A DNA stretch of 64,000 nucleotides. Source: Candidatus Latescibacterota bacterium. GTDB taxonomy: Bacteria; Latescibacterota; UBA2968. Shown one piece after another: positions 33,320 to 46,917 of this stretch; position 1 is the first letter of the stretch; each line of letters opens with the position of its first letter. The DNA is taken from assembly GCA_965208125.1 (NCBI GenBank), contig OZ242320.1:2752001-2816000 (forward strand). The letters are read 5' to 3'. The notes under the pieces are model-generated. The model did no database searches and was not told the DNA's origin. It was given only the letters and a program-made list of their open reading frames with translations. The translations under genes and the position numbers were made by a program.

Positions 33320-34042
33320 GTGGAACAATGGAGGACTGGCGTGGAGAGATCAAATAGTAAAGGTCCAGATTTGAAATTCTGGTATCGCTTTTCGAGCTAC
33401 AAATACACCGTTCTCACCCTTTCAGTGGTGTTTCTTTTTTTGACAATGCCGTTGTTAGAGCGCGAGGGAGAACATTATTTAATACCGTTTCTTTTTTTAC
33501 CGATTATGGCCGCGGTGCTCTGGACGTTGAGCCTTCATAGGGGGCTATTGGCGTTGTGTTTGGTGCTCGGGGTTCTGGGATTTGGTTTTCATTTAATTGT
33601 CGAGACTATTGATCTGTCTGAGGAAATATCCAGAGTGCTTGAGATGGCAGAGGCGGGTGTTTATAAACTGTTTTACGGGATATGCCTCCTGGTCTTTTTG
33701 CACCGGATTTTCTCTGAGACGACGGTCACAGCAGATACCATCCAGGGGGGGATAGCCATTTATTTTTTGAGTGGCTTGTTGTGGGCATTTTTTTATGAAA
33801 CTCTGTTATTATTTAATCCAGATGCGATTTTGTTTTCGAATCATGTCCTGGGTAAGTTTTCAGATCTAATTTATTTTTCTTTTGTTACAATAACCACTCT
33901 GGGCTATGGGGATATAACGCCTGTGAGCCGAATGGCGAAAAATCTGGCGCTTTTGGAAGCTGTTTGGGGACAAACCTATCTGGCGGTGCTGGTTGCTCGT
34001 CTGGTGGGACTGCATTTAAGTCGCAGCGGTCGATTCGATTGA
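33320..34042 (+). CDS. Potassium channel family protein (Ion_trans_2)
   Basis: YFSFVTITTLGYGDITP selectivity filter, YLAVLVARLVG; start uncertain. Confidence 0.88.
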   Translation: MEQWRTGVERSNSKGPDLKFWYRFSSYKYTVLTLSVVFLFLTMPLLEREGEHYLIPFLFLPIMAAVLWTLSLHRGLLALCLVLGVLGFGFHLIVETIDLSEEISRVLEMAEAGVYKLFYGICLLVFLHRIFSETTVTADTIQGGIAIYFLSGLLWAFFYETLLLFNPDAILFSNHVLGKFSDLIYFSFVTITTLGYGDITPVSRMAKNLALLEAVWGQTYLAVLVARLVGLHLSRSGRFD

Positions 34043-36136
34043 GGATGGTGTTTGGGCAAAAAAGTCCGGGATATCGACGGGTTCGCCCAGAGACAGATTC
34101 ATGAGCATGTCGTGCATGCAGAATGCAGATTCGTTTTGGGCGGGTTCAATGTGACAGTCCGTCCCATCGGGCAGTAGTTCGCGCGATTTGACATTGTCGG
34201 CAAAGCATGTGCTGAGGAGTTCTGTTTTTATCCGATTGATCAGGTCGGGGTCTTCAATGGGACAAAGCGTTTCTACGCGGCGGCGCAAATTTCGAGGCAT
34301 CCAATCCGCACTGCCGATGTACACATCGGGATTTCCGTCATTTTCAAAGTAATAGACGCGGCTGTGTTCCAGGAATCGCCCGATGATGCTACGCACTCTG
34401 ATGTTGTCGCTTATACCGGGAACCCCCGCACGCAGACAGCATATACCGCGCACAATCAGGTCAATTTGCACGCCGTTTTGCGATGCGCGATACAGCGCGC
34501 GAATGACTTTGGGATCTTGAAGTGAATTCATTTTCGCGACAATACGGGCTGTGCGTCCTTTGCGGGCATGGTGGATTTCGCGGTCGATTTTTTGAAGAAT
34601 AGAATCGAGCATGGTAGAGGGTGCAATGAGAAATTTGCTGACCTGGGGATGTGCAGATTGCGTGGTGAGCAAGTTGAAAACTTCGGCCACATCATTTGTG
34701 ATGTCTTCGCGTGCTGTGAACAATCCCAGGTCCGTATAAAGTCGGGCTGTTGAGGGGTTGTAATTGCCCGTGCCGATGTGGGCGTAGCGGCGTAGCCCGT
34801 TGTTGGCTTCGCGCCTGACCAGCATCGAGAGTTTGCAGTGCGTTTTAAGGCCCACAACCCCATATACGACGCATACACCCGCATCCTGAAGGCGGCGCGC
34901 CCATCGAATATTGGATTCCTCGTCAAATCGCGCTTTGAGTTCAACGACCACAGTTACTTCTTTACCCACCTCTGCTGCGCGGATCAGTGCATCGATAACG
35001 GGCGAATCTTCGCTGGTGCGATAGAGCGTTTGTTTGATGGCGAGCACATCGGGATCGGTTGCCGCTGAATTGACGAATTGAACAACGGGTGTAAAAGCAT
35101 CGTAGGGATGGTGAAGCAACATATCTTTTTGTTTAATCTGGTCAAAGAGGGTATCGACTTCCTCATACGTGTGGTCGGGCGGGTGATAGGGTGAATATTT
35201 CAAATCGGGTCTGGGGGTCGCGCTATAGAGTCCCATTAAACGGTTGAGATTCACCGGTCCGTTGACCTGATACACCTGGTTGTTTTTCAGACTGTATGTC
35301 GATTGTAAGCGCTTGACAAGTGCCCTGCTGGCATCGGCTTCGATTTCGAGGCGGACCGTGTCGCCTTTGCGTCGATTTTGCAATTCGTCTTCAATGGCGA
35401 GCAATAAGTCGTCGGCTTCTTCTTCGTCCAGATAAAGATCGCTGTTTCGGGTGATGCGAAAAGCAGCCGAGTCGAGAATTTGATATCCCCGGAAAAGTTC
35501 GGGAATATGTGCCTGAACAATATCGGCGAGAAAGACAAAGTCGATGCGCTGGCTGTCTTCTTCTCGAGGCAAGCGAATCAGACGCGGCAATAGACGGGGA
35601 ACCTGCACGACGCCGAGCAGTGTTTCACCTTCGCGGTTTTTGAGCAAAAGGGCGATGCAGAGGGCTTTGTTGATCAGGCGTGGCAATGGGTGTGCAGGGC
35701 TTATGGTGAGTGGGGTTAAAACCGGGTAGAGTTCTGCGTGGCAGTAGTCGTCAAGGAAGGATTTTTCGCGTTTGGAAAGCGTGCTGATGGTGCGTATGTG
35801 AACATCTGCATCGCGCAATGCGGGAAGGAGTTCATCATTCCAGCAGGCGTATTGCTCATCGACCATGCGATGGGCTTCTTTTGCAATGGCTGAAATTTGC
35901 TCTTCGGGCAGTAGGCCATCGGGACCGTAGTCGGAAATGCCCGCTTCTACTTGCTGGAGCAGTCCCGCTACGCGCACTTCAAAAAATTCGTCGAGGTTGT
36001 TGGCTACAATGCCCAGGAATTTGACCCGTTCCAACAGGGGATTTTCAGGGGTGCGGGCTTCTTGTAATACGCGCTGATTAAAGCGCAACCACGAAAGTTC
36101 CCTGTTAAAATAGAGACTGGTATCGCCGAGGTCCAT
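34016..36136 (-). CDS. ppk1: Polyphosphate kinase 1
   Basis: FNRELSWLRFN, NLDEFFEVRVAGL, LLHHPY, ELKARFDEE, KTHCK, GRFLEHSR, SADWMPRNL. Confidence 0.98.
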   Translation of the reverse strand: MDLGDTSLYFNRELSWLRFNQRVLQEARTPENPLLERVKFLGIVANNLDEFFEVRVAGLLQQVEAGISDYGPDGLLPEEQISAIAKEAHRMVDEQYACWNDELLPALRDADVHIRTISTLSKREKSFLDDYCHAELYPVLTPLTISPAHPLPRLINKALCIALLLKNREGETLLGVVQVPRLLPRLIRLPREEDSQRIDFVFLADIVQAHIPELFRGYQILDSAAFRITRNSDLYLDEEEADDLLLAIEDELQNRRKGDTVRLEIEADASRALVKRLQSTYSLKNNQVYQVNGPVNLNRLMGLYSATPRPDLKYSPYHPPDHTYEEVDTLFDQIKQKDMLLHHPYDAFTPVVQFVNSAATDPDVLAIKQTLYRTSEDSPVIDALIRAAEVGKEVTVVVELKARFDEESNIRWARRLQDAGVCVVYGVVGLKTHCKLSMLVRREANNGLRRYAHIGTGNYNPSTARLYTDLGLFTAREDITNDVAEVFNLLTTQSAHPQVSKFLIAPSTMLDSILQKIDREIHHARKGRTARIVAKMNSLQDPKVIRALYRASQNGVQIDLIVRGICCLRAGVPGISDNIRVRSIIGRFLEHSRVYYFENDGNPDVYIGSADWMPRNLRRRVETLCPIEDPDLINRIKTELLSTCFADNVKSRELLPDGTDCHIEPAQNESAFCMHDMLMNLSLGEPVDIPDFFAQTPSSIESTAAT

Positions 36137-36182
36137 AACACACTCCGGGGAAGAGGCGACGGAATTGCGTTAAAGGTCTGGT

Positions 36183-36212
36183 ATTATAATGCGATGGGGG
36201 GCAGATTGTCAA
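36183..36212 (-). promoter_or_regulatory. sigma70 promoter of ppk1
   Basis: Minus strand TTGACA-N18-TATAAT, both hexamers consensus. Confidence 0.8.
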
Positions 36213-36232
36213 ATAAAAACGGCGATCTTGAG

Positions 36233-36269
36233 GAAAAGGTCGGATGGGCAAAAATCCATCCGACCTTTT
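36233..36269. terminator. Perfect 15-bp inverted repeat, terminator-like on both strands
   Basis: GAAAAGGTCGGATGG-gcaaaat-CCATCCGACCTTTTC. Confidence 0.7.
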
Positions 36270-36326
36270 CTTTTGAGAAGAGAGTTAGCGGGAAGAATCC
36301 CCGAAGAAAGGATGAAATGGCGTATT

Positions 36327-36403
36327 TGTAACAAAAATGTCACGTTTTTGTGACCAAAGCGTAACCGTTTTGGAGGCGATTTGTAACATTATAGCGATAT
36401 CTT
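36327..36403 (+). promoter_or_regulatory. Pho-box-like direct-repeat array and -10 for the porin-pst operon
   Basis: TGTAACA 36327, TGTCACG 36338, TGTGACC 36349, CGTAACC 36360 and TGTAACA 36382 all sit on an 11-bp grid; -10 TATCTT at 36398. Confidence 0.8.
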
Positions 36404-36447
36404 ATCGCGGAGAACGTCGTTTATTCACCAATTCGGAGGGAGAGCAC

Positions 36448-37401
36448 ATGCGCATTTGTAAAGCAATTTGGGGAATACTGTTGTGTTTGAGTTTTGTATT
36501 GGCAGGACGGGGTGAAGCTGTCGATACCAGACTCCAGGGTGTTATGTTTGCCGATTATTATATCGTCAGAGGAAATGGAGAAGAAGAGAATGGCTTTCGG
36601 TTTCGACGCATTTATCTCACCCATGATCTGAAGTGGAGTGATACCTTTTCTGGACGGGTTCGGCTGGAAGCCAAGGATGCGGGCTTTAATAGTGAGAAAA
36701 AAATAGAACCTTTTGTAAAGCACGCGTATTTGCGCTATCGCAAAAATGGCCATGCGATCTATATGGGGCTGTCGGGTACGCCAACATGGAACGTATCGGA
36801 GTCTGTTTGGGGTTATCGCTCGGTCGAGAAGACCCTCATGGATCGAAAAAAAATTGCCTCTTCTGCTGATTTAGGCATTGCATATCGCACGCGATTAGAT
36901 GAAGCTGGAAAGTTAAATGCCCAGATTATGCTGGCCAATGGCAGTGGGCAGCAGTCCGAGTCAGATCACTACAAGAAAATTTACGGTCTGTTGCATTTTA
37001 ATCCCGGCACTCTAAATGTGACGACTTATGTAGATTGGGAAAAACGCGCAGGCAATCGAGATCGCACGACTTTTGCTACGTTTATTGGGTGGAAAAAGAA
37101 AATTTTCCACGGCGGTTTGGAAGCCTTTATGCACTGGCGCAACCATACCGCACAGATGCGAGGACTTTCACTGTTCGGCTCAGGACAGATTAGCGAGAAG
37201 ATAAAGGTGTTTGCTCGCGGCGATTTCTTTGATCCAGACGATAAGTCTGACGACGATGGGGAATATTGTTTTCTCGGAGGGCTTGACATTGAGCCGGTAA
37301 AGGATATTCACATCATGCCCAATGTGATGGGCACAAATTTTCAGGCTCCAGATGTAGATATTGAGGTGATTCCCCGGCTGACGCTATATGTTAAGTTTTG
37401 A
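36448..37401 (+). CDS. Outer-membrane beta-barrel, probable phosphate-selective porin (OprO/P-like)
   Basis: Signal peptide, FRFRRIYL, FVKHAYL, alternating beta pattern, C-terminal Phe; first gene of the pst operon; SD GGAGGGAG. Confidence 0.75.
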   Translation: MRICKAIWGILLCLSFVLAGRGEAVDTRLQGVMFADYYIVRGNGEEENGFRFRRIYLTHDLKWSDTFSGRVRLEAKDAGFNSEKKIEPFVKHAYLRYRKNGHAIYMGLSGTPTWNVSESVWGYRSVEKTLMDRKKIASSADLGIAYRTRLDEAGKLNAQIMLANGSGQQSESDHYKKIYGLLHFNPGTLNVTTYVDWEKRAGNRDRTTFATFIGWKKKIFHGGLEAFMHWRNHTAQMRGLSLFGSGQISEKIKVFARGDFFDPDDKSDDDGEYCFLGGLDIEPVKDIHIMPNVMGTNFQAPDVDIEVIPRLTLYVKF

Positions 37402-37409
37402 GTACAGGT

Positions 37410-37447
37410 TATCACATAAATGTCGTGTTTTTGTCACATGTGTAACG
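37410..37447 (+). promoter_or_regulatory. Second Pho-box-like array upstream of pstS
   Basis: TATCACA 37410, TGTCGTG 37421, TGTCACA 37432 (11-bp spacing), plus off-phase TGTAACG 37441. Confidence 0.6.
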
Positions 37448-37498
37448 CGATATAGGTTTATTTTTTGTATGCTATCACACTACGCCAAGGGAGATTGA

Positions 37499-38476
37499 AT
37501 GACCAGATTTATTTTTATGATTGCATGTATGGCTGTTTTGATACCGGCTACAGCTCAGGCACAACAAGATTCGCCTGTTTCCGCGTATCAAAAAGTGAGT
37601 GGGATTTCCGGAAGTGCCAATAGCATTGGCTCCGATACGATGAATAATTTGATGACGCTCTGGTTGGAAGGCTTTCGCAAGTACTATCCCAGTGTAACTA
37701 TTCAGGTTGAGGGCAAGGGATCGAGCACGGCGCCTCCCGCACTGATCGAAGGCACCGCGCAATTTGGGCCTATGTCGCGCCCGATGAAGGCTTCGGAAAT
37801 TGACAAGTTTGAAAAGCATTTTGGATATCCCCCTACAGTGTTGCGAACCTCGTTGGATGCACTGGCTATTTTTGTCAATAAAGATAACCCAATTAATGGG
37901 TTGACTTTGCAGCAGGTAGATGCGATTTTTTCCAAGACGCGACGCGGTGAGTACAGGGAAAATGTTACGAGATGGGGACAGTTGGGTCTGGGAGACGATT
38001 GGAAAAATGCCGCATTCAGCCTTTATGGTCGCAATTCCGCGTCGGGCACTTATGGGTTCTTCAAAGATCACGCGCTGTTTAAGGGCGATTTCAAAGATGA
38101 AGTAAAAGAGCAGCCCGGGTCTGCTTCGGTTGTACAGGGTGTGGCCGAAGACAGGTACAGCATTGGTTATAGTGGCATTGGTTACAAGACCTCTGGCGTG
38201 CGTGTCGTACCTCTGGCGCTGGAAACTGGCGAACCCTTTAGAGAGGGTACGATAGAAAATGTGATCGATGGATCTTATCCTCTGGGGCGTTTTTTGTATT
38301 TGTACATCAACAAGGTGCCCAATAAACCACTCGATCCGCTGGTGAGAGAATTTTGTAAATTTATTTTTTCTAAAGAAGGGCAAGAGATTGTCGTTAAAGA
38401 TGGCTATATGCCCGTGCCCTATCAGGTGGTTAAAGAGGAACTCGAGAAGTTACAGTTACCCATCCAAACACCCTAA
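37499..38476 (+). CDS. pstS: Phosphate ABC transporter substrate-binding protein
   Basis: GSDTM, GKGSSTAPPAL, PMSR, YGRNSASGTY, IGYSGIGY, YPLGRFLYLY. Confidence 0.95.
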   Translation: MTRFIFMIACMAVLIPATAQAQQDSPVSAYQKVSGISGSANSIGSDTMNNLMTLWLEGFRKYYPSVTIQVEGKGSSTAPPALIEGTAQFGPMSRPMKASEIDKFEKHFGYPPTVLRTSLDALAIFVNKDNPINGLTLQQVDAIFSKTRRGEYRENVTRWGQLGLGDDWKNAAFSLYGRNSASGTYGFFKDHALFKGDFKDEVKEQPGSASVVQGVAEDRYSIGYSGIGYKTSGVRVVPLALETGEPFREGTIENVIDGSYPLGRFLYLYINKVPNKPLDPLVREFCKFIFSKEGQEIVVKDGYMPVPYQVVKEELEKLQLPIQTP

Positions 38477-38571
38477 CTGCCAGCGGTGAGACGTTAGAGG
38501 GCCAGCCAACTTCCATCCCAGAGGCGAGAGAAAGCCCCAGCCCCTGTTTCTCACCTCTTATCTATAGCAAT

Positions 38572-38667
38572 CGTCACGCCGGCAGGATTTAATCCGGCGT
38601 CCAGCTTCTACATTACTGCATAGCTAAAACATACTGGATTGCGGCTAAACACCATACCGCGATGACG
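38572..38667. repeat. Composite palindromic element between pstS and pstC
   Basis: CGTCACGCCGG..CCGGCGTCCAG ... CTGGATTGCGG..CCGCGATGACG: two hairpins in inverted arrangement. Confidence 0.65.
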
Positions 38668-38694
38668 AGCACCTTTCCCGTCTCACTCTTTATT

Positions 38695-40935
38695 ATGGCA
38701 CTTCCATTGAAACCATTATCAAAGCGACAATTGCCCGGCATCACGCCAAAGGCACGTCTGATGGATCGCACTGGACAGTGGGTGATCACTGCTGGCGGCA
38801 TCGGGGTGATCCTGTCGGTGTTGGGCATTTTTCTTTTTGTGTTGATGGAGTCCTATCCCCTGTTTTTGAAGCCGAGCGTGTCCAGGGTGCATACCTTTGA
38901 TTTTTCGCACCGTCAGCCGGTTCTGTGTACGGGGGTTGACCCCTATCAGGCGGTGATGTTTGTCGTGCATGAAGCGGGGATTGATTTTGTGGATATGACT
39001 ACAAAGTCTGTGACAAAGTCTGTGTATCCCCCAGAACTACAGGGACGGCGTATTCGGGCAGCTTATCGCGCTCTGGATAACACGCATGTTGGTCTGGGGC
39101 TGGAAGACGGTACAATGCTGGGCTGCCGCGTGAATTTTGCCGTGGATTACGATGCGGAGGGAAAACAGATTGTGACGCCGTCTTTTTCTGTTGAGTCGTC
39201 GATGGTTCTAACCGATCAAGCTCTTGCACATCTCGTATTTCGGCACGATGGGGAATCCCGAAGTACGGTACTTGGTATTGCGGATTCCGGGCAACTCGTT
39301 TTGGGAATTTCCGAAACACAGCGCGGTCTTTTGGGCGGTGGTACAACAACAGTTCGCACATACGATTTGACTGATGAGATCAAAGGGCGCGCCAGGGTAG
39401 GTGCTGTGGCAAAATCGGGACGCTATGTTCTGGTGGGCACAGACCGCGGTGAAGTATTTCGGTGGGAAATTGGACGGAGGGGTTCCAATCCCAGGCTGTT
39501 GGATTATTTTCGGGTTTCCGACCAGGAGGTGACTGCGCTGGATTTTGTGCTGGGTGATGTGTCGCTCGTTGTGGGCGATTTGGGTGGTCGCGTATCTGTC
39601 TGGATGCCCGTCAGGGCGAGCGAGGGCGACAATAAAAGGGCGTTCAAAAAGATCCATACTTTGCGGTCTCATCGCGCGGCGGTGGTTGCACTGGCGTCGT
39701 CTGCTCGCGACAAACAGTTTTTATCGGGCGATGTAGCGGGAATGGTTGCATTGCATCACATGACATCGGAACAAACGTTTTTCGAATTGTCCGGTGATGG
39801 CCCCATTCGAGCCATGGCTTTCGCGCCCAAAGTGGATGGCTTTTTGACAGTGAGCGGGTCGGGGCAGGTGACGGATTTCGACCTCCAAAATCCACATCCT
39901 GAAGTGACGTTACAAACGCTTTTTGGCAAAGTGTGGTACGAGGGATATACGGAGTCTCAATACGTGTGGCAATCCACGGGGGGATCGGATGATTTTGAGC
40001 CCAAGTTGAGTATTGTACCTTTGATATTTGGCACATTTAAGGGCACGCTTTACGCCATGTTATTCGCGCTGCCTCTGGCAGTTCTGGCGGCGATTTACAC
40101 ATCGGAATTTGCGTCTCCCAACGTGCGTGGTGTGGTCAAACCCGTGGTGGAGTTGATGGCTTCGCTTCCCAGTGTGATTCTGGGCTTTTTAGCTGGTTTG
40201 TGGTTGGCACCGCTTCTGGAGACGAGGATTGTCGGTGCCCTGTTGTTGTTACCCTGTGTGCCCATTGTGGTGGTGGTATGTGCGTGGGCGTGGAGACAGA
40301 TGTCCGAAGATTTTGCGCGCAGAATACCGGATCACTGGATTCTAACTTTGTTGGCTGGTATCGCGTTGTTCGCGCTCTATCTGTCGTTCGCGCTCGGTCC
40401 GGTAGCTGAGTCGCTTTTGTTTGGCGGCAATTTTCAAGGCTGGCTGCTCGGCACAACGGGTACGCGCTACGATCAGCGCAATTGTCTGGTGGTGGGCTTT
40501 GCGATGGGATTTGCCGTAGTGCCCATTATTTATACGATCTGCGAAGATGCTCTGTCGAGTGTGCCACAGCATCTGCGCGCTGGATCACTCGCGCTTGGCG
40601 CAACGCCTTGGCAAACCGCTATCCGCGTGGTGTTGCCCACGGCGAGCCCGGGTATTTTTTCCGCGACTATGATTGGATTCGGTCGCGCTGTGGGCGAAAC
40701 GATGATTGTGTTGATGGCTACGGGCAATACTCCGATTCTGGATTGGAGCATTTTTAACGGCATGCGCACGATGTCGGCCAATATCGCCGTGGAGATTCCC
40801 GAAGCACCCCATGAAGGTACGCTTTATCGCGTGTTGTTTTTGACAGGGGTTTTGCTGGCGGCGATTACTTTTTTGGTGAATACGCTGGCAGAAGTGGTGC
40901 GGCAGCGTTTGCGCGAGAAGTATAGCAGGATCTGA
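38695..40935 (+). CDS. pstC: Phosphate ABC transporter permease PstC, long form with beta-propeller-like domain
   Basis: WD40-like repeats; KPVVELMASLPSV, GSLALGATPWQT, GRAVGETMIVLMATGN; start 38695 or 38761. Confidence 0.92.
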   Translation: MALPLKPLSKRQLPGITPKARLMDRTGQWVITAGGIGVILSVLGIFLFVLMESYPLFLKPSVSRVHTFDFSHRQPVLCTGVDPYQAVMFVVHEAGIDFVDMTTKSVTKSVYPPELQGRRIRAAYRALDNTHVGLGLEDGTMLGCRVNFAVDYDAEGKQIVTPSFSVESSMVLTDQALAHLVFRHDGESRSTVLGIADSGQLVLGISETQRGLLGGGTTTVRTYDLTDEIKGRARVGAVAKSGRYVLVGTDRGEVFRWEIGRRGSNPRLLDYFRVSDQEVTALDFVLGDVSLVVGDLGGRVSVWMPVRASEGDNKRAFKKIHTLRSHRAAVVALASSARDKQFLSGDVAGMVALHHMTSEQTFFELSGDGPIRAMAFAPKVDGFLTVSGSGQVTDFDLQNPHPEVTLQTLFGKVWYEGYTESQYVWQSTGGSDDFEPKLSIVPLIFGTFKGTLYAMLFALPLAVLAAIYTSEFASPNVRGVVKPVVELMASLPSVILGFLAGLWLAPLLETRIVGALLLLPCVPIVVVVCAWAWRQMSEDFARRIPDHWILTLLAGIALFALYLSFALGPVAESLLFGGNFQGWLLGTTGTRYDQRNCLVVGFAMGFAVVPIIYTICEDALSSVPQHLRAGSLALGATPWQTAIRVVLPTASPGIFSATMIGFGRAVGETMIVLMATGNTPILDWSIFNGMRTMSANIAVEIPEAPHEGTLYRVLFLTGVLLAAITFLVNTLAEVVRQRLREKYSRI

Positions 40936-40945
40936 TGTTCTGGAG

Positions 40946-42553
40946 ATGGATGTGAAAAATTTTTGGAAAACAGGTGTGCCATTTATCTGGTTGACCGGTA
41001 GCGCGCTGGCGCTTTGTTTGCTTATGATTACAGGGCTGATCGCGCTGGTTATGTACAATGGCACCGGATTTTTCTGGCCCTCGGATATCGAAGCAGTGAT
41101 ACTCAAAGATGGTCGGAAAGCGATGGGGCAGCGGTGGGGCAAACAGGAGATTCCAGCATCGCATCGAACGGGATCCGGGCTATTTCGCATTCAGCTCAAA
41201 GTGGGCAATCGCGATGTGTATAGCAGCGATTTTCAATGGATAGATGAATCGGATATTCAATCGACGGACTATCCCGTAGATGCGGTGGTTTTTGAGCGGC
41301 GCGAGTGGGGCAATTTTTACGGGTTTATCGAAGCTCTGTACGAAGGTGAAACCCAGATGTCGAATACATGGGATGTGCTGCAAGCACAATTGGATAATAC
41401 CCGGCAACGACACGAACAGATTCGGCGAATTGAAAAAGATGCGATTGGCGACTTAAATCGGCAAATTGAAAATCTGCGACTAAAAAAACGCGAGATAGAA
41501 TTGGGTGGTGGAAATGCCGATGAAGTGGATGCGATTGATCGAGAGAACCGAACCTATTGGGAAGCTTATGAACAATTGGCTGACCAACTGGCGCAATTGC
41601 GTGCAGCCAACGAGACCTACCGCATAGATGTGCGGTTAATTGGCGGCGAGGTGCGGCAGATTGCCACGGCCGATATCGTGCGTGCTTATCGTCCCAATCG
41701 GCTGGGGATTTTGGGAAAAATGAGCGTTTATTTTGAGCGCGTTGGGGAATTTTTATTTGCTGAACCCCGTGAATCCAATACAGAAGGCGGGGTATTTCCC
41801 GCGATCTTTGGCACTGTTATGATGGTTTTTTTGATGAGTTTGGCGGCTGTGCCATTTGGTATCTTGGCCGCGCTCTATTTGCGCGAATACGCCAGGCAAG
41901 GTATTTTAGTTAGAGTGATTCGCATTGCGGTTAATAATCTGGCGGGTGTACCTTCTATTGTTTTTGGGATGTTTGGACTGGGATTTTTTGTTTATGGCAT
42001 TGGCGGAAGTATTGATCAACTCTTTTTTCCCGAAGCGTTGCCCACGCCCACATTTGGTACTGGCGGCATTTTGTGGGCTTCGTTGACCCTGGCATTGCTG
42101 ACAGTGCCGGTGATGATCGTTTCTGCTGAAGAAGCCCTTTCTGCCGTGCCGAGCGATGTGCGTGCCGGGTCGCTGGCTCTGGGGGCGACCAAGTTGCAGA
42201 CCATTTTGCGCGTGGTTTTGCCCGGCGCGCTGCCGGGTATTCTCACAGGCATTATTCTCGTGATTGCGCGCGGTGCTGGCGAAGTGGCTCCGCTGATGAT
42301 TACTGGCGTTGTGAAATTGGCTCCTGCGTTGCCCATGGATGGTATCTGGCCCTTTTTTCACCTGGAACGCAAGTTTATGCATCTGGGGTTTCACATTTAC
42401 GATGTGGGTTTCCAGTCGCCCAATGTCGAGGCGGCTCGTCCCATGGTATATACGACGACTTTATTGCTGATGGGAATTGTACTGGCTCTGAATCTGGTGG
42501 CTATTCTGGTTCGCAATCGGCTTCGCAAGCGCGTTGGTGGTGCGACGTTTTGA
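40946..42553 (+). CDS. pstA: Phosphate ABC transporter permease PstA, long form with coiled coil
   Basis: PRESNTEGGVFPAIFGT, NNLAGVPSIVFG, ARGAGEVAPL. Confidence 0.95.
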   Translation: MDVKNFWKTGVPFIWLTGSALALCLLMITGLIALVMYNGTGFFWPSDIEAVILKDGRKAMGQRWGKQEIPASHRTGSGLFRIQLKVGNRDVYSSDFQWIDESDIQSTDYPVDAVVFERREWGNFYGFIEALYEGETQMSNTWDVLQAQLDNTRQRHEQIRRIEKDAIGDLNRQIENLRLKKREIELGGGNADEVDAIDRENRTYWEAYEQLADQLAQLRAANETYRIDVRLIGGEVRQIATADIVRAYRPNRLGILGKMSVYFERVGEFLFAEPRESNTEGGVFPAIFGTVMMVFLMSLAAVPFGILAALYLREYARQGILVRVIRIAVNNLAGVPSIVFGMFGLGFFVYGIGGSIDQLFFPEALPTPTFGTGGILWASLTLALLTVPVMIVSAEEALSAVPSDVRAGSLALGATKLQTILRVVLPGALPGILTGIILVIARGAGEVAPLMITGVVKLAPALPMDGIWPFFHLERKFMHLGFHIYDVGFQSPNVEAARPMVYTTTLLLMGIVLALNLVAILVRNRLRKRVGGATF

Positions 42554-42576
42554 ATAGGTGAGAGAAAGGAATCGCG

Positions 42577-43389
42577 ATGGCTGAAGCAGAACTTGCAAAT
42601 ACACGGTCCGATGAAGCAATTGTTCCAGATATTCAGAATCCCATTGTCACCATATCTAATCTGAGCCTGTATTACGGCGAGACGCAGGCCCTTTTTGACA
42701 TTGACATGCAGATTCCCGAGTATCAGGTAACGGCTTTGATCGGTCCTTCGGGGTGCGGGAAGTCAACGCTGTTGCGGTGCATGAATAGGCTGAACGATTT
42801 GATCGATTCGGTGCGTATCGAGGGTGCGGTTGAAATTGATAATGACGACATTTACAGTTCTGGTTATGATGTGATTTCGTTGCGCCGCCGGGTCGGGATG
42901 GTATTTCAAAAGTCCAATCCTTTTCCCAAGTCGATCTATGAGAATCTCGTTTACGGTTTGCGAATTGCAGGTGAAAATCGGCGGGCGGTGCTCAATGAGG
43001 TGGTGGAACGCAGTTTGCAGGCTGCCGCGCTTTGGGATGAAGTAAAAGACCGGCTCGATGACAGTGCTCTGGGGCTTTCGGGAGGACAACAGCAGAGGTT
43101 GTGCATTGCGCGTGCAATTGCCGTTGAGCCTGCGGTGATCTTGATGGATGAACCCTGTTCAGCACTGGATCCAATTGCGACAGGGCGCATTGAGGAGACA
43201 ATAGAAGAGCTCAAAAAGCAATATACGATTGTAATTGTAACACACAATATGCAACAAGCGTCGCGCATTTCGGACTATACGGCGTTTTTCTATTTGGGGC
43301 GTTTGATTGAGATGGCCGAAACGAGTGAGATGTTTACCAATCCGCAGCTCAAACAAACCGAAGATTATGTGACGGGGCGGTTTGGCTAA
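42577..43389 (+). CDS. pstB: Phosphate ABC transporter ATP-binding protein
   Basis: [42 protein letters not shown]. Confidence 0.98.
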
Positions 43390-43400
43390 GCAGAGGAGTA

Positions 43401-44084
43401 ATGATTATGGAGCGTACTCTTGACCAGCATCTCGACCACCTCAAAGGTGAGTTGTTGAAGATGGGCAGTGCGGTGGAAGAGTCGATTGAACAGGCAGTAC
43501 AATCGCTTGTAGAACGCGACAATCACCTCGCCGATGTGGTTGAAGAGGGTGGGCATCACATTGACGATTGGGAAGTGGAGATAGAAGAAGAGTGTTTGAA
43601 GTTGCTGGCTGTGCAGCAACCGGTGGCTGGCGATTTGCGCCTGGTGGCGAGTATGATAAAGATCAATTACGATCTCGAGCGCATCAATGATCAGGCGGTG
43701 AATATCGCGCAGCGCGCCCGCTTGCTCAATCAGATGCCGCAATTGAAACCGCTGATCGATATTCCGCGGATGGCTGTGTTAGCACGGGGTATGGTCAGGG
43801 ATGCTTTAGATGCTTTTGTCAATCGCGACGTGGAATTGGCCAATAAGGTGCGTAAAATTGACGATACAATGGATGCGTTGCGCGATCAAATTTTTCGGGA
43901 GTTGTTGACGTACTTAAACACGGGTATGTCCGCGACTGTAGATCAGGCAATTTTGCTCATTCTCGTGTCCCGGCATTTGGAGCGCATAGGCGATCATTCA
44001 TCCAATATTGCCGAAAATGTCGTCTATCTCGTTCAGGGACGCATTGTGAGACATCAAAAGGAGGAATTGCGCGCAGAGGAGTAA
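43401..44084 (+). CDS. phoU: Phosphate signaling complex protein PhoU
   Basis: QQPVAGDLR, DLERINDQAVNIA, HLERIGDHSSNIAE. Confidence 0.97.
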   Translation: MIMERTLDQHLDHLKGELLKMGSAVEESIEQAVQSLVERDNHLADVVEEGGHHIDDWEVEIEEECLKLLAVQQPVAGDLRLVASMIKINYDLERINDQAVNIAQRARLLNQMPQLKPLIDIPRMAVLARGMVRDALDAFVNRDVELANKVRKIDDTMDALRDQIFRELLTYLNTGMSATVDQAILLILVSRHLERIGDHSSNIAENVVYLVQGRIVRHQKEELRAEE

Positions 44085-44104
44085 TCCCTCTTTGTGGCGA
44101 ACAC

Positions 44105-44148
44105 TGTCGCGTAAATGACACGCGATTGTAACACCGCGATGATATCAT
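44105..44148 (+). promoter_or_regulatory. Third Pho-box-like array with extended -10, downstream of phoU
   Basis: TGTCGCG 44105, TGACACG 44116, TGTAACA 44127, then TGn-TATCAT 44143; same box-to-(-10) spacing as the porin promoter. Confidence 0.7.
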
Positions 44149-44154
44149 ATCCAA

Positions 44155-44211
44155 AGCACGACGTATTCTCCCTCTTGGGAACCGGCCCGCGACCCGGTTC
44201 CCATTTTTTTT
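44155..44211 (+). ncRNA. Candidate ~55-nt small RNA (Pho-regulated, CU-rich seed)
   Basis: Lies between the Pho-box promoter and a strong terminator; single-stranded TTCTCCCTCT; no ORF fits inside the predicted unit. Confidence 0.5.
44176..44211 (+). terminator. Intrinsic terminator (pst operon and candidate sRNA)
   Basis: TGGGAACCGG-cccgcgac-CCGGTTCCCA followed by T8. Confidence 0.9.
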
Positions 44212-44240
44212 GCCCCGAACATGAATTCGGGGCTTTTTCG

Positions 44241-44269
44241 TTGACCCAAAATTGGTACCTGTGTATTTT
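44241..44269 (+). promoter_or_regulatory. sigma70-type promoter for the Nudix-cox operon
   Basis: TTGACC-N17-TATTTT. Confidence 0.55.
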
Positions 44270-44318
44270 ACTATCTGGAGATGCTACTATATTATATTAG
44301 TATTAAAAAATAAGGTGG

Positions 44319-44867
44319 TTGACCTCTTTGCCCAATTGCATAAAATCCGAAGCCCGATTTTGCGAGCGCTGTGGGACTTTGCTGGTTGTAAAAGCAGTTG
44401 AAGATCGGGAGAGGCCTTGTTGTCCGTCGTGTGGATTTGTGGCCTATCTCGATCCCAAGGTAGCAGCCGGGGTTATTGTAACCCTCGATGGTGGCGTTGT
44501 CCTGCTCAAGCGCAATATTGATCCCGGGTTTGGCAAGTGGGTGTTCCCCGGCGGATATGTGGATGCGGGCGAGCCTACCGATGTCGCGGCTGTGCGCGAA
44601 ACCCGCGAGGAAGTGGGGTTAGAGGTCGAGATCGGCGAGTTGCTCGGTGTGTTGTCTTATGAAGGGGAGCGGGTGGTGCTGATTGTTTATACCGGACGGG
44701 TTGTGGGCGGAAAGTTGGAAGGCAATTTTGAATCGCAGGCTGTGGCTACATTTGCCCCTCGGGATATTCCATGGAATGATCTGGCTTTTGACACAACGAG
44801 AGAGGCATTGCAAATTTGGGTGGCGCAGTATGGCGAAGTGTACGAAAAAGAAAGGTTATTATGCTGA
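44319..44867 (+). CDS. NUDIX hydrolase with N-terminal zinc ribbon
   Basis: FCERCG..CPSCG, PGGYVDAGE..AAVRETREEVG Nudix box. Confidence 0.92.
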   Translation: MTSLPNCIKSEARFCERCGTLLVVKAVEDRERPCCPSCGFVAYLDPKVAAGVIVTLDGGVVLLKRNIDPGFGKWVFPGGYVDAGEPTDVAAVRETREEVGLEVEIGELLGVLSYEGERVVLIVYTGRVVGGKLEGNFESQAVATFAPRDIPWNDLAFDTTREALQIWVAQYGEVYEKERLLC

Positions 44868-45772
44868 ATTCTATTGAAGATGTTGAAGAGCGGTTTGCCG
44901 AGCAGGGTTATATCACTGACCGCACATTGGCAACGACGATTTTTTTGGCACAGTCGCTTGGCAAACCAATTTTTCTGGAGGGAGAACCAGGCGTTGGAAA
45001 GACAGAAGTGGCCAAAGTTATGGCCAGTATTTTTGATACTGAATTGATTCGATTGCAGTGCTATGAAGGCATTGATGCCAATACGGCATTGTACGAGTGG
45101 AACTATCCGCGCCAGATGCTGGAGTTAAGGCTTGAAGAAGCGCAGGGGATCGACAAGGCCGAAATTGGTCAGAATATTTTTCGCGAAGATTTTTTGCTCA
45201 AGCGCCCCCTTTTGTCGGCTCTTGAGGGTAGCGCAGAAAAGCAACAGGTGTTGTTGATTGACGAAGTGGATCGGTCGGATGAAGAGTTTGAAGCGTTTTT
45301 GCTCGAAGTGTTGTCCGATTTCCAGATTACGATTCCCGAAATTGGTGCGATAAGAGCGATGCAAGTGCCGTTTGTCGTGCTTACGTCCAACCGCACGCGC
45401 GAGTTGCACGATGCACTGAAGCGCCGGTGTTTGTATTTGTGGATTGATTATCCCACGTTTAGCAAAGAAATGGATATTGTGCGGTCGCGTGTGTCGGGCG
45501 TGCAGAACGAATTGGCACAACAGGTTTGCGGGTTTATGCAATTGTTGCGCAATCGCGATTTTTACAAAAAACCCGGCGTTGCCGAAACGATTGATTGGGC
45601 GCTGGCTCTAATGGCTATGCAAGTTGACGAATTGGATCCTCAGACAGTTGATGCGACATTGGGATGCGTTTTGAAGTATAAAGAAGATATTGAAAAAATT
45701 CAGGAAGACGGCCTGCCACAACTGATTGAGAAGGCCCGATTGTTAAAAGAACGCACGCAAGTTGCCGTTTAG
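44861..45772 (+). CDS. MoxR family AAA+ ATPase (CoxD-like)
   Basis: LEGEPGVGKTE, RLQCYEGID, LLIDEVDRSDEEFEAFLLE, TSNRTRELHDALKRRC. Confidence 0.93.
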   Translation: MLNSIEDVEERFAEQGYITDRTLATTIFLAQSLGKPIFLEGEPGVGKTEVAKVMASIFDTELIRLQCYEGIDANTALYEWNYPRQMLELRLEEAQGIDKAEIGQNIFREDFLLKRPLLSALEGSAEKQQVLLIDEVDRSDEEFEAFLLEVLSDFQITIPEIGAIRAMQVPFVVLTSNRTRELHDALKRRCLYLWIDYPTFSKEMDIVRSRVSGVQNELAQQVCGFMQLLRNRDFYKKPGVAETIDWALALMAMQVDELDPQTVDATLGCVLKYKEDIEKIQEDGLPQLIEKARLLKERTQVAV

Positions 45773-45780
45773 GAGATTAT

Positions 45781-46917
45781 ATGCCAAGGACTATGCTGGG
45801 ACGAGTTGTCGGTTTTTCAAGGGCTTTGCACAGTGCAGGTGTTGAAGTCAATGCGGGCAATCTCATCGATTTGTGCGACAGTTTTCAATATATCAGCCTG
45901 CACAATCGAAGCGATTTTTACGCTGCTGCGCGTGCAACACTGGTGTCGCGTTACGACGATCTGGAGACTTTTGACGAGGTTTTCAGGACTTTCTGGGCGC
46001 GGCCGATTTTGCCCGACGATATGACGCTGACCGATACGGATGCTGGCGGAGATCCAGATCTCGATGTGCAGGCAGATGTCAATGAGGTGGTGGATACCGC
46101 AGATTTGCAGGAAGAGGCCGAGGGGGAGGGCGAATCCGAGGAGGTTGGGTATAGCCCCGATGAGGCCTTGATGGCGAAAGATCTGGCGGCAATGTCCGAT
46201 CGCGAGATTGAGCAGGCCCGAAAGGTGATTCACGAGATTGTGAATATTATTGCCAATCGCCGCAGTCGCAGGCGCGTGCCCGAAAATCGGGGGGCTGAAC
46301 TGGATTTCAGGCGCACATGGCGGCGCAATGCACTATATGGTTCTGATGGTGTGGAATTGATGATGAAGCGGCGGCGCATCAAAAAGACCAAGCTGATGTT
46401 GTTGTGTGATGTGAGTGGGTCTATGGATTGTTATAGCCGCTTTTTAATCCGCTTTATCTACGCGCTCAAGCGCGAAATCCGAGATGTGGAGGTCGGGGTG
46501 TTTTCCACGCGGATGACCGCGATTTCGCGGCTGCTGAAAACAAAAGGTATTGAAGAGTCACTCGTGGAAGTGGCTGATACAGTACACGACTGGGCAGGTG
46601 GAACAGATATTGGCGGGTGTTTGCGCGAGTTTAACGATCAGTTTGCGCGCGATATGTTGCACTCGCGCACTGTGATGATTATTGTGAGCGATGGCTGGGA
46701 TCGGGGTGATCCCGATTTGATGCGGCAAGAGATGGCGCGCTTGCGAAAGCGCGTGCATAAGTTGATGTGGCTCAACCCGCTTTTGGGTACGCCGGGGTAT
46801 CAGCCCCTGTGTTTGGGGATGAAGACAGCACTTCCATATCTGGATTATTTTTTGCCCGCACACAATCTGGAGAGTTTGATTCAACTTGCCCGAACACTGC
46901 GGTCTGTTTGGAAGTAG
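45781..46917 (+). CDS. VWA domain protein (CoxE-like)
   Basis: DVSGSM MIDAS, WAGGTDIG, VSDGWDRGD, WLNPL. Confidence 0.92.
   Translation: MPRTMLGRVVGFSRALHSAGVEVNAGNLIDLCDSFQYISLHNRSDFYAAARATLVSRYDDLETFDEVFRTFWARPILPDDMTLTDTDAGGDPDLDVQADVNEVVDTADLQEEAEGEGESEEVGYSPDEALMAKDLAAMSDREIEQARKVIHEIVNIIANRRSRRRVPENRGAELDFRRTWRRNALYGSDGVELMMKRRRIKKTKLMLLCDVSGSMDCYSRFLIRFIYALKREIRDVEVGVFSTRMTAISRLLKTKGIEESLVEVADTVHDWAGGTDIGGCLREFNDQFARDMLHSRTVMIIVSDGWDRGDPDLMRQEMARLRKRVHKLMWLNPLLGTPGYQPLCLGMKTALPYLDYFLPAHNLESLIQLARTLRSVWK

Follow-up and report, generated by a model that had tools for sequence, protein, structure and literature searches.

A candidate small RNA gene with its own Pho-box-type promoter downstream of phoU in Latescibacterota

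Introduction

In the genome of a Candidatus Latescibacterota bacterium (assembly GCA_965208125.1), promoter-like elements of the phosphate-regulon type follow the last gene of the pst operon and point away from it. The question raised by this locus is what such a promoter would serve there: a separate RNA gene, the 3'UTR of the operon that it follows, the leader of the next operon, or a transcript of the opposite strand. The window analysed is the whole stretch of 64,000 nucleotides (contig OZ242320.1, positions 2,752,001 to 2,816,000 of the forward strand), and coordinates given without a genome or locus label refer to it.

In the window, ppk lies on the minus strand (34016-36136), ahead of a plus-strand porin-like gene and the pst locus. 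The plus-strand order after ppk is porin-like gene, pstS, pstC, pstA, pstB, phoU. A gap of 234 nt separates phoU from a nudix gene, with AAA-ATPase and VWA genes further on. The features on which the analysis turns are the following.

36327..36387, plus strand: promoter of the porin-like gene (reference), with TGTNAC boxes at 36327, 36338, 36349, 36360 and 36382 in a single 11-bp phase
37410..37446, plus strand: pstS promoter (reference), with boxes at 37410, 37421 and 37432 and TGTAAC at 37441
43401..44084, plus strand: phoU, last gene of the pstSCAB-phoU operon (PhoU domain, E 1e-47)
44085..44104, plus strand: variable spacer 3' of the phoU stop, with indels, 4% of its columns invariant, and larger insertions in genomes G001 and G018
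44105..44132, plus strand: three Pho-box-like hexamers, TGTCGC (44105-44110), TGACAC (44116-44121) and TGTAAC (44127-44132), at an exact 11-bp period
44140..44148, plus strand: TG-extended -10 (TG at 44140-44141, one base, TATCAT at 44143-44148), 10 nt past box 3
44156..44175, plus strand: predicted +1 (G 44156, an inferred 5' end) and unpaired 5' part of the putative RNA, with a CU-rich stretch at 44166-44175
44176..44211, plus strand: terminator hairpin T1 and T8, 3' end of the putative RNA (hairpin 44176-44203; 10 bp, 7 of them G-C; loop of 8)
44212..44240, plus strand: second terminator T2 (hairpin 44212-44233 of 8 bp, then T5), its structure kept across genera, its sequence not
44241..44269, plus strand: the nudix operon's own promoter, TTGACC-17-TATTTT, from a promoter scan, its -35 block invariant in 13/13 columns

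Two short open reading frames overlap the region of interest and were rejected as genes: a plus-strand ORF of 61 aa (44115-44300) had no family match, and a minus-strand ORF of 65 aa (43957-44154) spans the indel-rich spacer.

Several features of the neighbouring genes were also recorded. The porin-like gene (36448-37401, true start ATG 36448) is the first of the pst locus; it encodes 317 aa without a Pfam family, "porin" being the label of an earlier note on this DNA, and it stands under the strongest box array of the genome. The products of pstC (757 aa) and pstA (535 aa; both genes within 38662-42553) are much above the usual length. In pstC, residues ~242-433, ahead of the permease domain, give weak beta-propeller/WD40-like Pfam matches, all of them below cut-off. 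At one related locus (L017, genome G009) the nudix ribosome-binding site is set off from the nudix promoter by ~120 inserted nt.

Results

A box promoter after the last pst gene

The earlier note had reported a Pho-box array and an extended -10 after the last pst gene, and both are present where it had placed them. The promoter has no -35 hexamer and is therefore omitted by a generic sigma-70 scan, which is what activator dependence predicts.

The rarity of the array was assessed with a score for three TGTNAC hexamers at an 11-bp period (maximum 15), applied to both strands of the 5.75-Mb genome. Scores of at least 13/15 were found at 10 positions in 6 loci genome-wide. The promoter of the putative RNA (13/15) is among them, and two of the 6 loci fall in this pst locus. 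Among the 6, only the RNA promoter has TANNNT 9-11 nt past box 3, and there the element is TG-extended. Exact two-box sites occur at 6 positions in the genome, 2 of which lie in the porin promoter. The box array is beyond chance.

The same design is found at the phosphate-uptake genes. In three genera the pstS promoter is made up of four boxes in 11-bp phase and a -10-like hexamer 10 nt beyond the last of them. The spacing from box to -10 is identical in the RNA module, where the 10 nt are followed by TAT(C/T)NT. Overall the porin and pstS promoters carry 4-6 in-phase TGTNAC boxes. Since the GTNAC core is palindromic, the orientation of a box is ambiguous and can be read from the -10 only.

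Some variation around these arrays was observed. In three sponge RNA runs, the contigs of relatives are 22 nt shorter at 37412, by exactly two 11-bp units of the pstS boxes. Before box 1 of the RNA module there is an AT-rich element ending in TTAACGG, kept across genera (e.g. loci L007-L013, L221, L222). It overlaps the stop of the upstream gene in differing frames (phoU in genus g1, an uncharacterised gene in genus g9) and, standing 11 nt upstream, could be a fourth box in degenerate form. A further three-box array (13/15) lies on the minus strand at G000:C1:4988558-4988569, upstream of a small HU/IHF-like ORF.

Fold of the putative RNA and its separation from the nudix operon

The stretch downstream of the -10 is short and ends in the 10-bp stem and T8 that had been described before (44176-44211). 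Folded as a 57-nt RNA (44155-44211), it consists of 21 unpaired nt and the hairpin, at -18.7 kcal/mol with a z-score of -3.1; the first 21 nt are unpaired in both the minimum-energy and the centroid fold. In the alignment of relatives 98.9% of the cells of the T1 stem are paired, and two pairs covary, with compensatory replacement of A-U by G-C. Most of the T1 loop is kept across genera, and T2 keeps its hairpin-plus-T shape only. A search of positions 35000-46000 against Rfam 15 returned 7 weak matches, all far under the gathering thresholds (best 20.4 bits vs 45).

The following operon has a promoter of its own at 44241, as had been proposed; TTGACC-17-TATTTT is found there with an invariant -35 block. 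T1, T2 and this conserved nudix promoter set the module apart from the nudix gene, which agrees with the earlier view that the boxes serve no protein gene.

Conservation in relatives

Across 17 species of the genus, the alignment is rich in indels after the phoU stop and becomes nearly fixed from box 1 onwards. As a yardstick, 41% of the 4-fold degenerate phoU sites are invariant among the 16 species with a complete phoU. In the same 16 species no change is seen in 16/17 columns from box 2 through box 3, in 19/23 columns of the 5' part of the putative RNA, and in 78% of the -10 block. The share of invariant columns is 20% for the 5 nt that separate the -10 from the RNA, 4% for the spacer after the stop, 0% for the T2 loop and 8% for the nudix 5'UTR. 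Conservation in relatives had been suggested as a check on the RNA, and it takes the form of boxes, -10 and RNA that are kept amid variable spacers and flanks.

A covariance model of the RNA detected one strong copy in each of 20/20 genomes of the genus. Family-wide the RNA occurs in 24/31 genomes from three genera, one copy each (g1 20/20, g4 1/1, g9 2/3; g2 0/2, g3 0/3, g5 0/1). In 16 genomes of the sister family the model found no copy, save one weak match (E 0.015). A pattern scan of public genomes matched 120 stretches, and 80 loci were rescanned with the RNA model. The RNA was present in 6 of these 80, all titled Latescibacterota or Latescibacteria, and the remaining 74 were chance matches in other phyla.

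Genomes in which the surroundings have changed

Informative cases are the lineages in which the neighbourhood of the module differs. In G001, 1.9 kb with three ORFs without Pfam families lie between phoU and the RNA module, and the module itself comprises three boxes at the 11-bp period, a 10-nt gap, TATTAT, six variable nt and the same RNA. In genus g9 (G042 and G043) the gene upstream of the module is not phoU, it encodes an uncharacterised 305-aa protein; in G043 pstS lies ~10 kb upstream of the module on the same contig. Both genomes have kept the boxes, the gap, the -10 and the RNA, and every spacer differs. G023 (genus g4) shows the same kept pattern up to the end of its contig.

In all four of these genomes the 11-bp period and the 5' part of the RNA are preserved and all spacers are different. 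The element TG, one base, TAT(C/T)NT stands 10 nt after the last box with the same spacing in 5 lineages. In these lineages the conserved RNA begins at the same G, 6-7 nt past the -10, the expected position of a transcript start; this G is taken as the predicted +1. The boxes go with the RNA and not with phoU in G001, G042 and G043. This comparison of genomes demonstrates that the candidate RNA gene is independent of phoU.

Three other genomes of the genus (G010, G016 and G018) have kept the RNA with small variants in the seed, and at most one box can be recognised. In G018, 3.1 kb are inserted and no boxes were seen.

The G001 locus (L171, reverse strand) has a further peculiarity: the promoter of boxes plus -10 is present twice, at ~820-900 and ~2720-2790, flanking the 1.9-kb insertion. 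The copy that adjoins phoU is followed by a different hairpin and T7.

Pairing with ribosome-binding sites

The earlier note had also proposed that the unpaired part of the RNA pairs with ribosome-binding sites of the operon itself. The pairs exist exactly as they had been counted: the porin ribosome-binding site GGAGGGAGAG (36435-36444, ATG 36448) forms 8 Watson-Crick and 2 G:U pairs, and that of pstS, AGGGAGA (37488-37494), forms 7 bp with the RNA. Their weight was judged by computing duplexes between the 22-nt 5' part and the translation-initiation regions of ~4462 crude gene calls (energies in kcal/mol). The genome-wide mean is -11.5 kcal/mol with an sd of 3.7. The pstS duplex (-12.0 kcal/mol, rank 1818 of 4462) lies at the genome mean. 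The porin duplex (-20.9 kcal/mol, rank 40 of 4462) is within the reach of 16 shuffles; among relatives it ranges from -16.5 to -21.3 in 11/14 species and is weak in G011, G001 and G010. The porin and pstS matches are not beyond chance, and they lend no support to the suggested feedback on the operon's own ribosome-binding sites.

The same comparison limits the search for targets in general. The best duplex of the RNA is -27.7, vs -26.3 +/- 1.6 for the 16 shuffles, and partners at -20 or below number 87, vs 63 +/- 24. Real duplexes are no better than shuffled ones, and therefore single-genome target prediction has no power here.

Conservation of a duplex across the genus was a further guide. 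The best conserved target candidate is prs (PRPP synthetase), where the predicted site covers the ribosome-binding site and the start codon. The duplex has -25.2 in 15/21 genus genomes and -20.9 or stronger in 19/21, and -12 to -13 in g9.

Two other candidates were rejected. The top duplex partner, a gene for a 903-aa PLD-domain protein (-27.7 kcal/mol), is present in 2/21 genus genomes and was dismissed as a conserved target. In G005 and G011 a variant seed matches a 9-nt stretch of their own pstS leader. As co-variation of seed and pstS this was discarded: the own seed gives -11.8 vs -10.0 for the swapped one, the case is a single lineage, and the variant seed pairs better still with the pstS of G000 (-13.0).

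Regulator, RNA chaperones and RNA data

The best PhoB-like gene, an OmpR-family member at G000:C1:2414423-2415094, matches the full length of the model with 261 bits, under the 296-bit cut-off. No boxes were found upstream of this gene, where autoregulation would place them, and the motif stands at almost no other promoter in the genome. Because the motif is nearly absent elsewhere as well as upstream of the PhoB-like gene, the link to phosphate comes from the pst locus alone.

Neither Hfq nor ProQ (PF17209, PF04352) had a match in the single-contig genome, which is 96% complete. Such a chaperone is no strict requirement for trans-acting base-pairing small RNAs. Among 4462 crude gene starts of G000, GGAGG was observed upstream of 833 and AGGAG upstream of 1266; with these motifs before many starts, Shine-Dalgarno initiation is therefore in use.

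The RNA data consist of assembled contigs from four sponge metatranscriptome runs of one study (X1-X4), a form in which starts, ends and strand are not visible. Relatives 90-99% alike cover the pst locus in the four runs. Contigs continuous with phoU end inside the module, at 44157 (X3) and at 44187 (X4), and the next listed contigs start at 44287 or 44291, so that 44188-44286 is uncovered among the pieces listed. Since phoU-continuous contigs enter the module, there is also transcription past the end of phoU, or else these contigs derive from DNA. The contig pattern is evidence neither for nor against a 5' end at 44156.

Discussion

What the module encodes

The module is probably a separate small RNA gene of ~55 nt (~44156-44211) with its own Pho-box-type promoter, which would be induced when phosphate is scarce and act in trans by base-pairing. 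The earlier note had proposed a phosphate-starvation sRNA that feeds back on the operon. From that proposal, the RNA gene with its own promoter has strong support from comparative genomics, its 5' end being a prediction, and the operon feedback has no support from the duplex energies.

Transcription would start from an activator-dependent promoter in which three or four TGTNAC boxes at the 11-bp period replace the -35 and a TG-extended -10 follows ten nt on. Most likely a PhoB/OmpR-type regulator turns the RNA on together with the phosphate-uptake genes when phosphate is scarce. The start site and the identity of this regulator are predictions. As this is the design of the pstS and porin promoters, the RNA is most likely co-induced with the phosphate-uptake genes, and its response to phosphate limitation is likewise a prediction. 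The 5' 20 nt of the predicted transcript are unpaired, pyrimidine-rich and near-invariant, and the remainder would be terminator hairpin and U-tail. Most likely the RNA acts in trans, independently of Hfq and ProQ, by pairing with mRNAs at purine-rich ribosome-binding regions, a mode of action that is itself a prediction. In most species the RNA would share its terminator with the pst-phoU mRNA.

Alternative explanations

Another origin would be that the pst-phoU mRNA simply ends here, the module being no more than its 3'UTR with terminator. The RNA, if released, would then arise by processing, and the boxes would be non-promoter sites for titration or looping. Such an arrangement would fit the adjacency of phoU and the module in 18/20 other genomes of the genus, the phoU-continuous contigs that reach 44157 and 44187, and the persistence of the RNA in G010, G016 and G018 without a clear box array. 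It is nevertheless unlikely: it gives no account of a TG-extended -10 exactly 10 nt off the last box in 5 lineages or of conservation that sets in at the predicted +1. Furthermore, the boxes stay by the RNA where the upstream gene is not phoU, and the part between the phoU stop and box 1 is the least conserved.

The module is also linked to what lies downstream. In 24/24 genomes having the RNA it is joined to the nudix-type promoter region, and T1, T2 and the -35 follow each other without a spacer. The box promoter could make a leader of the nudix-AAA-VWA operon, with regulated read-through of the two terminators as the means of phosphate control. This is quite improbable. The missing spacer alone predicts tight linkage, the two tandem terminators are strong, an antiterminator would not fit into the ~20 nt before T1, and the nudix operon is served by an invariant promoter of its own. 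More improbable by far is that the conserved block is a minus-strand promoter whose transcript would be antisense to the phoU 3' end, with an extended -10 formed by the reverse complement of the box-3 region. Such a site does appear in the promoter scan, at 44153..44125 on the minus strand (TGGATA-17-TACAAT, the latter with a TG ahead of it). In G001, however, box 3 is TGTCAC, which kills the minus-strand -10 and leaves the plus-strand geometry intact; the would-be 5' region (44085-44110) is the most variable, with indels, and the -35 region is variable too. The separate RNA gene read from the plus strand is the preferred interpretation.

Comparison with known systems

An RNA of similar architecture is PhoS of Bacillus velezensis and B. 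subtilis. PhoS is 66 nt long and has an extended -10 promoter of its own within the phoR 3'UTR; it is PhoP-dependent, induced by phosphate scarcity, and has a Rho-independent terminator and a conserved seed (PMC11522486). The seed acts on the phoP leader, at the ribosome-binding region of the mRNA, and PhoS activates phoP by opening a hairpin (PMC11522486). PhoS is the closest analogue of the candidate Latescibacterota RNA: both are short RNAs after the last gene of a phosphate-regulon operon, with their own extended -10, a terminator and a conserved seed. Unlike PhoS, which belongs to the phoPR operon, the Latescibacterota RNA follows pstSCAB-phoU in a different phylum, and the likeness to PhoS is one of architecture, no relationship in sequence having emerged from the Rfam search.

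The promoter resembles those bound by PhoB in enterobacteria, with repeats at 11 bp, no -35, a constant 10-nt gap before the -10, and occurrence of the motif at pstS. In enterobacterial PhoB promoters, e.g. that of pstS, 7-bp repeats with an 11-bp period replace the -35 and lie ~10 bp upstream of the -10. The Latescibacterota unit differs in being a TGTNAC hexamer with a palindromic GTNAC core, and arrays contain 3-6 units.

Small RNAs embedded in 3'UTRs with their own promoter are exemplified by DapZ and MicL, and C/U-rich seeds that bind Shine-Dalgarno regions by RsaE/RoxS. The candidate RNA is like DapZ and MicL in its position at the operon end and in a terminator common with the operon. 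With RsaE/RoxS it has in common a seed that is pyrimidine-rich, left unpaired in the fold, and complementary to ribosome-binding sites of the GGAG type. It differs from all of these in that no Hfq or ProQ was found in the host genome and that it has no similarity to an Rfam family. A full-text literature search for 'Latescibacter' with 'sRNA' found no regulatory RNA of Latescibacterota.

Implications

A more far-reaching picture can be drawn for these sponge-associated Latescibacterota. The TGTNAC regulon would consist of the porin, pstS and RNA promoters, with the RNA as its sole regulatory output beyond phosphate uptake. Under starvation this anti-Shine-Dalgarno RNA would shut down phosphate-costly translation independently of Hfq and ProQ, prs being the best conserved candidate. 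Taken as a whole this picture is rather unlikely. If the reading of prs and a small regulon is true, this candidate phylum would have its first assigned regulatory RNA.

The case illustrates that comparative genomics alone can delimit promoter, start point, seed and terminator in unculturable organisms. It provides a first working definition of the Latescibacterota phosphate box (TGTNAC repeated every 11 bp and ending 10 nt before the -10). As its genome lacks detectable Hfq and ProQ, the RNA is a candidate for studies of chaperone-free RNA regulation. With the unrelated PhoS of Bacillus as the first example, it would be the second small RNA gene that ends a phosphate-regulon operon and is under the control of that regulon, which suggests that the design is recurrent.
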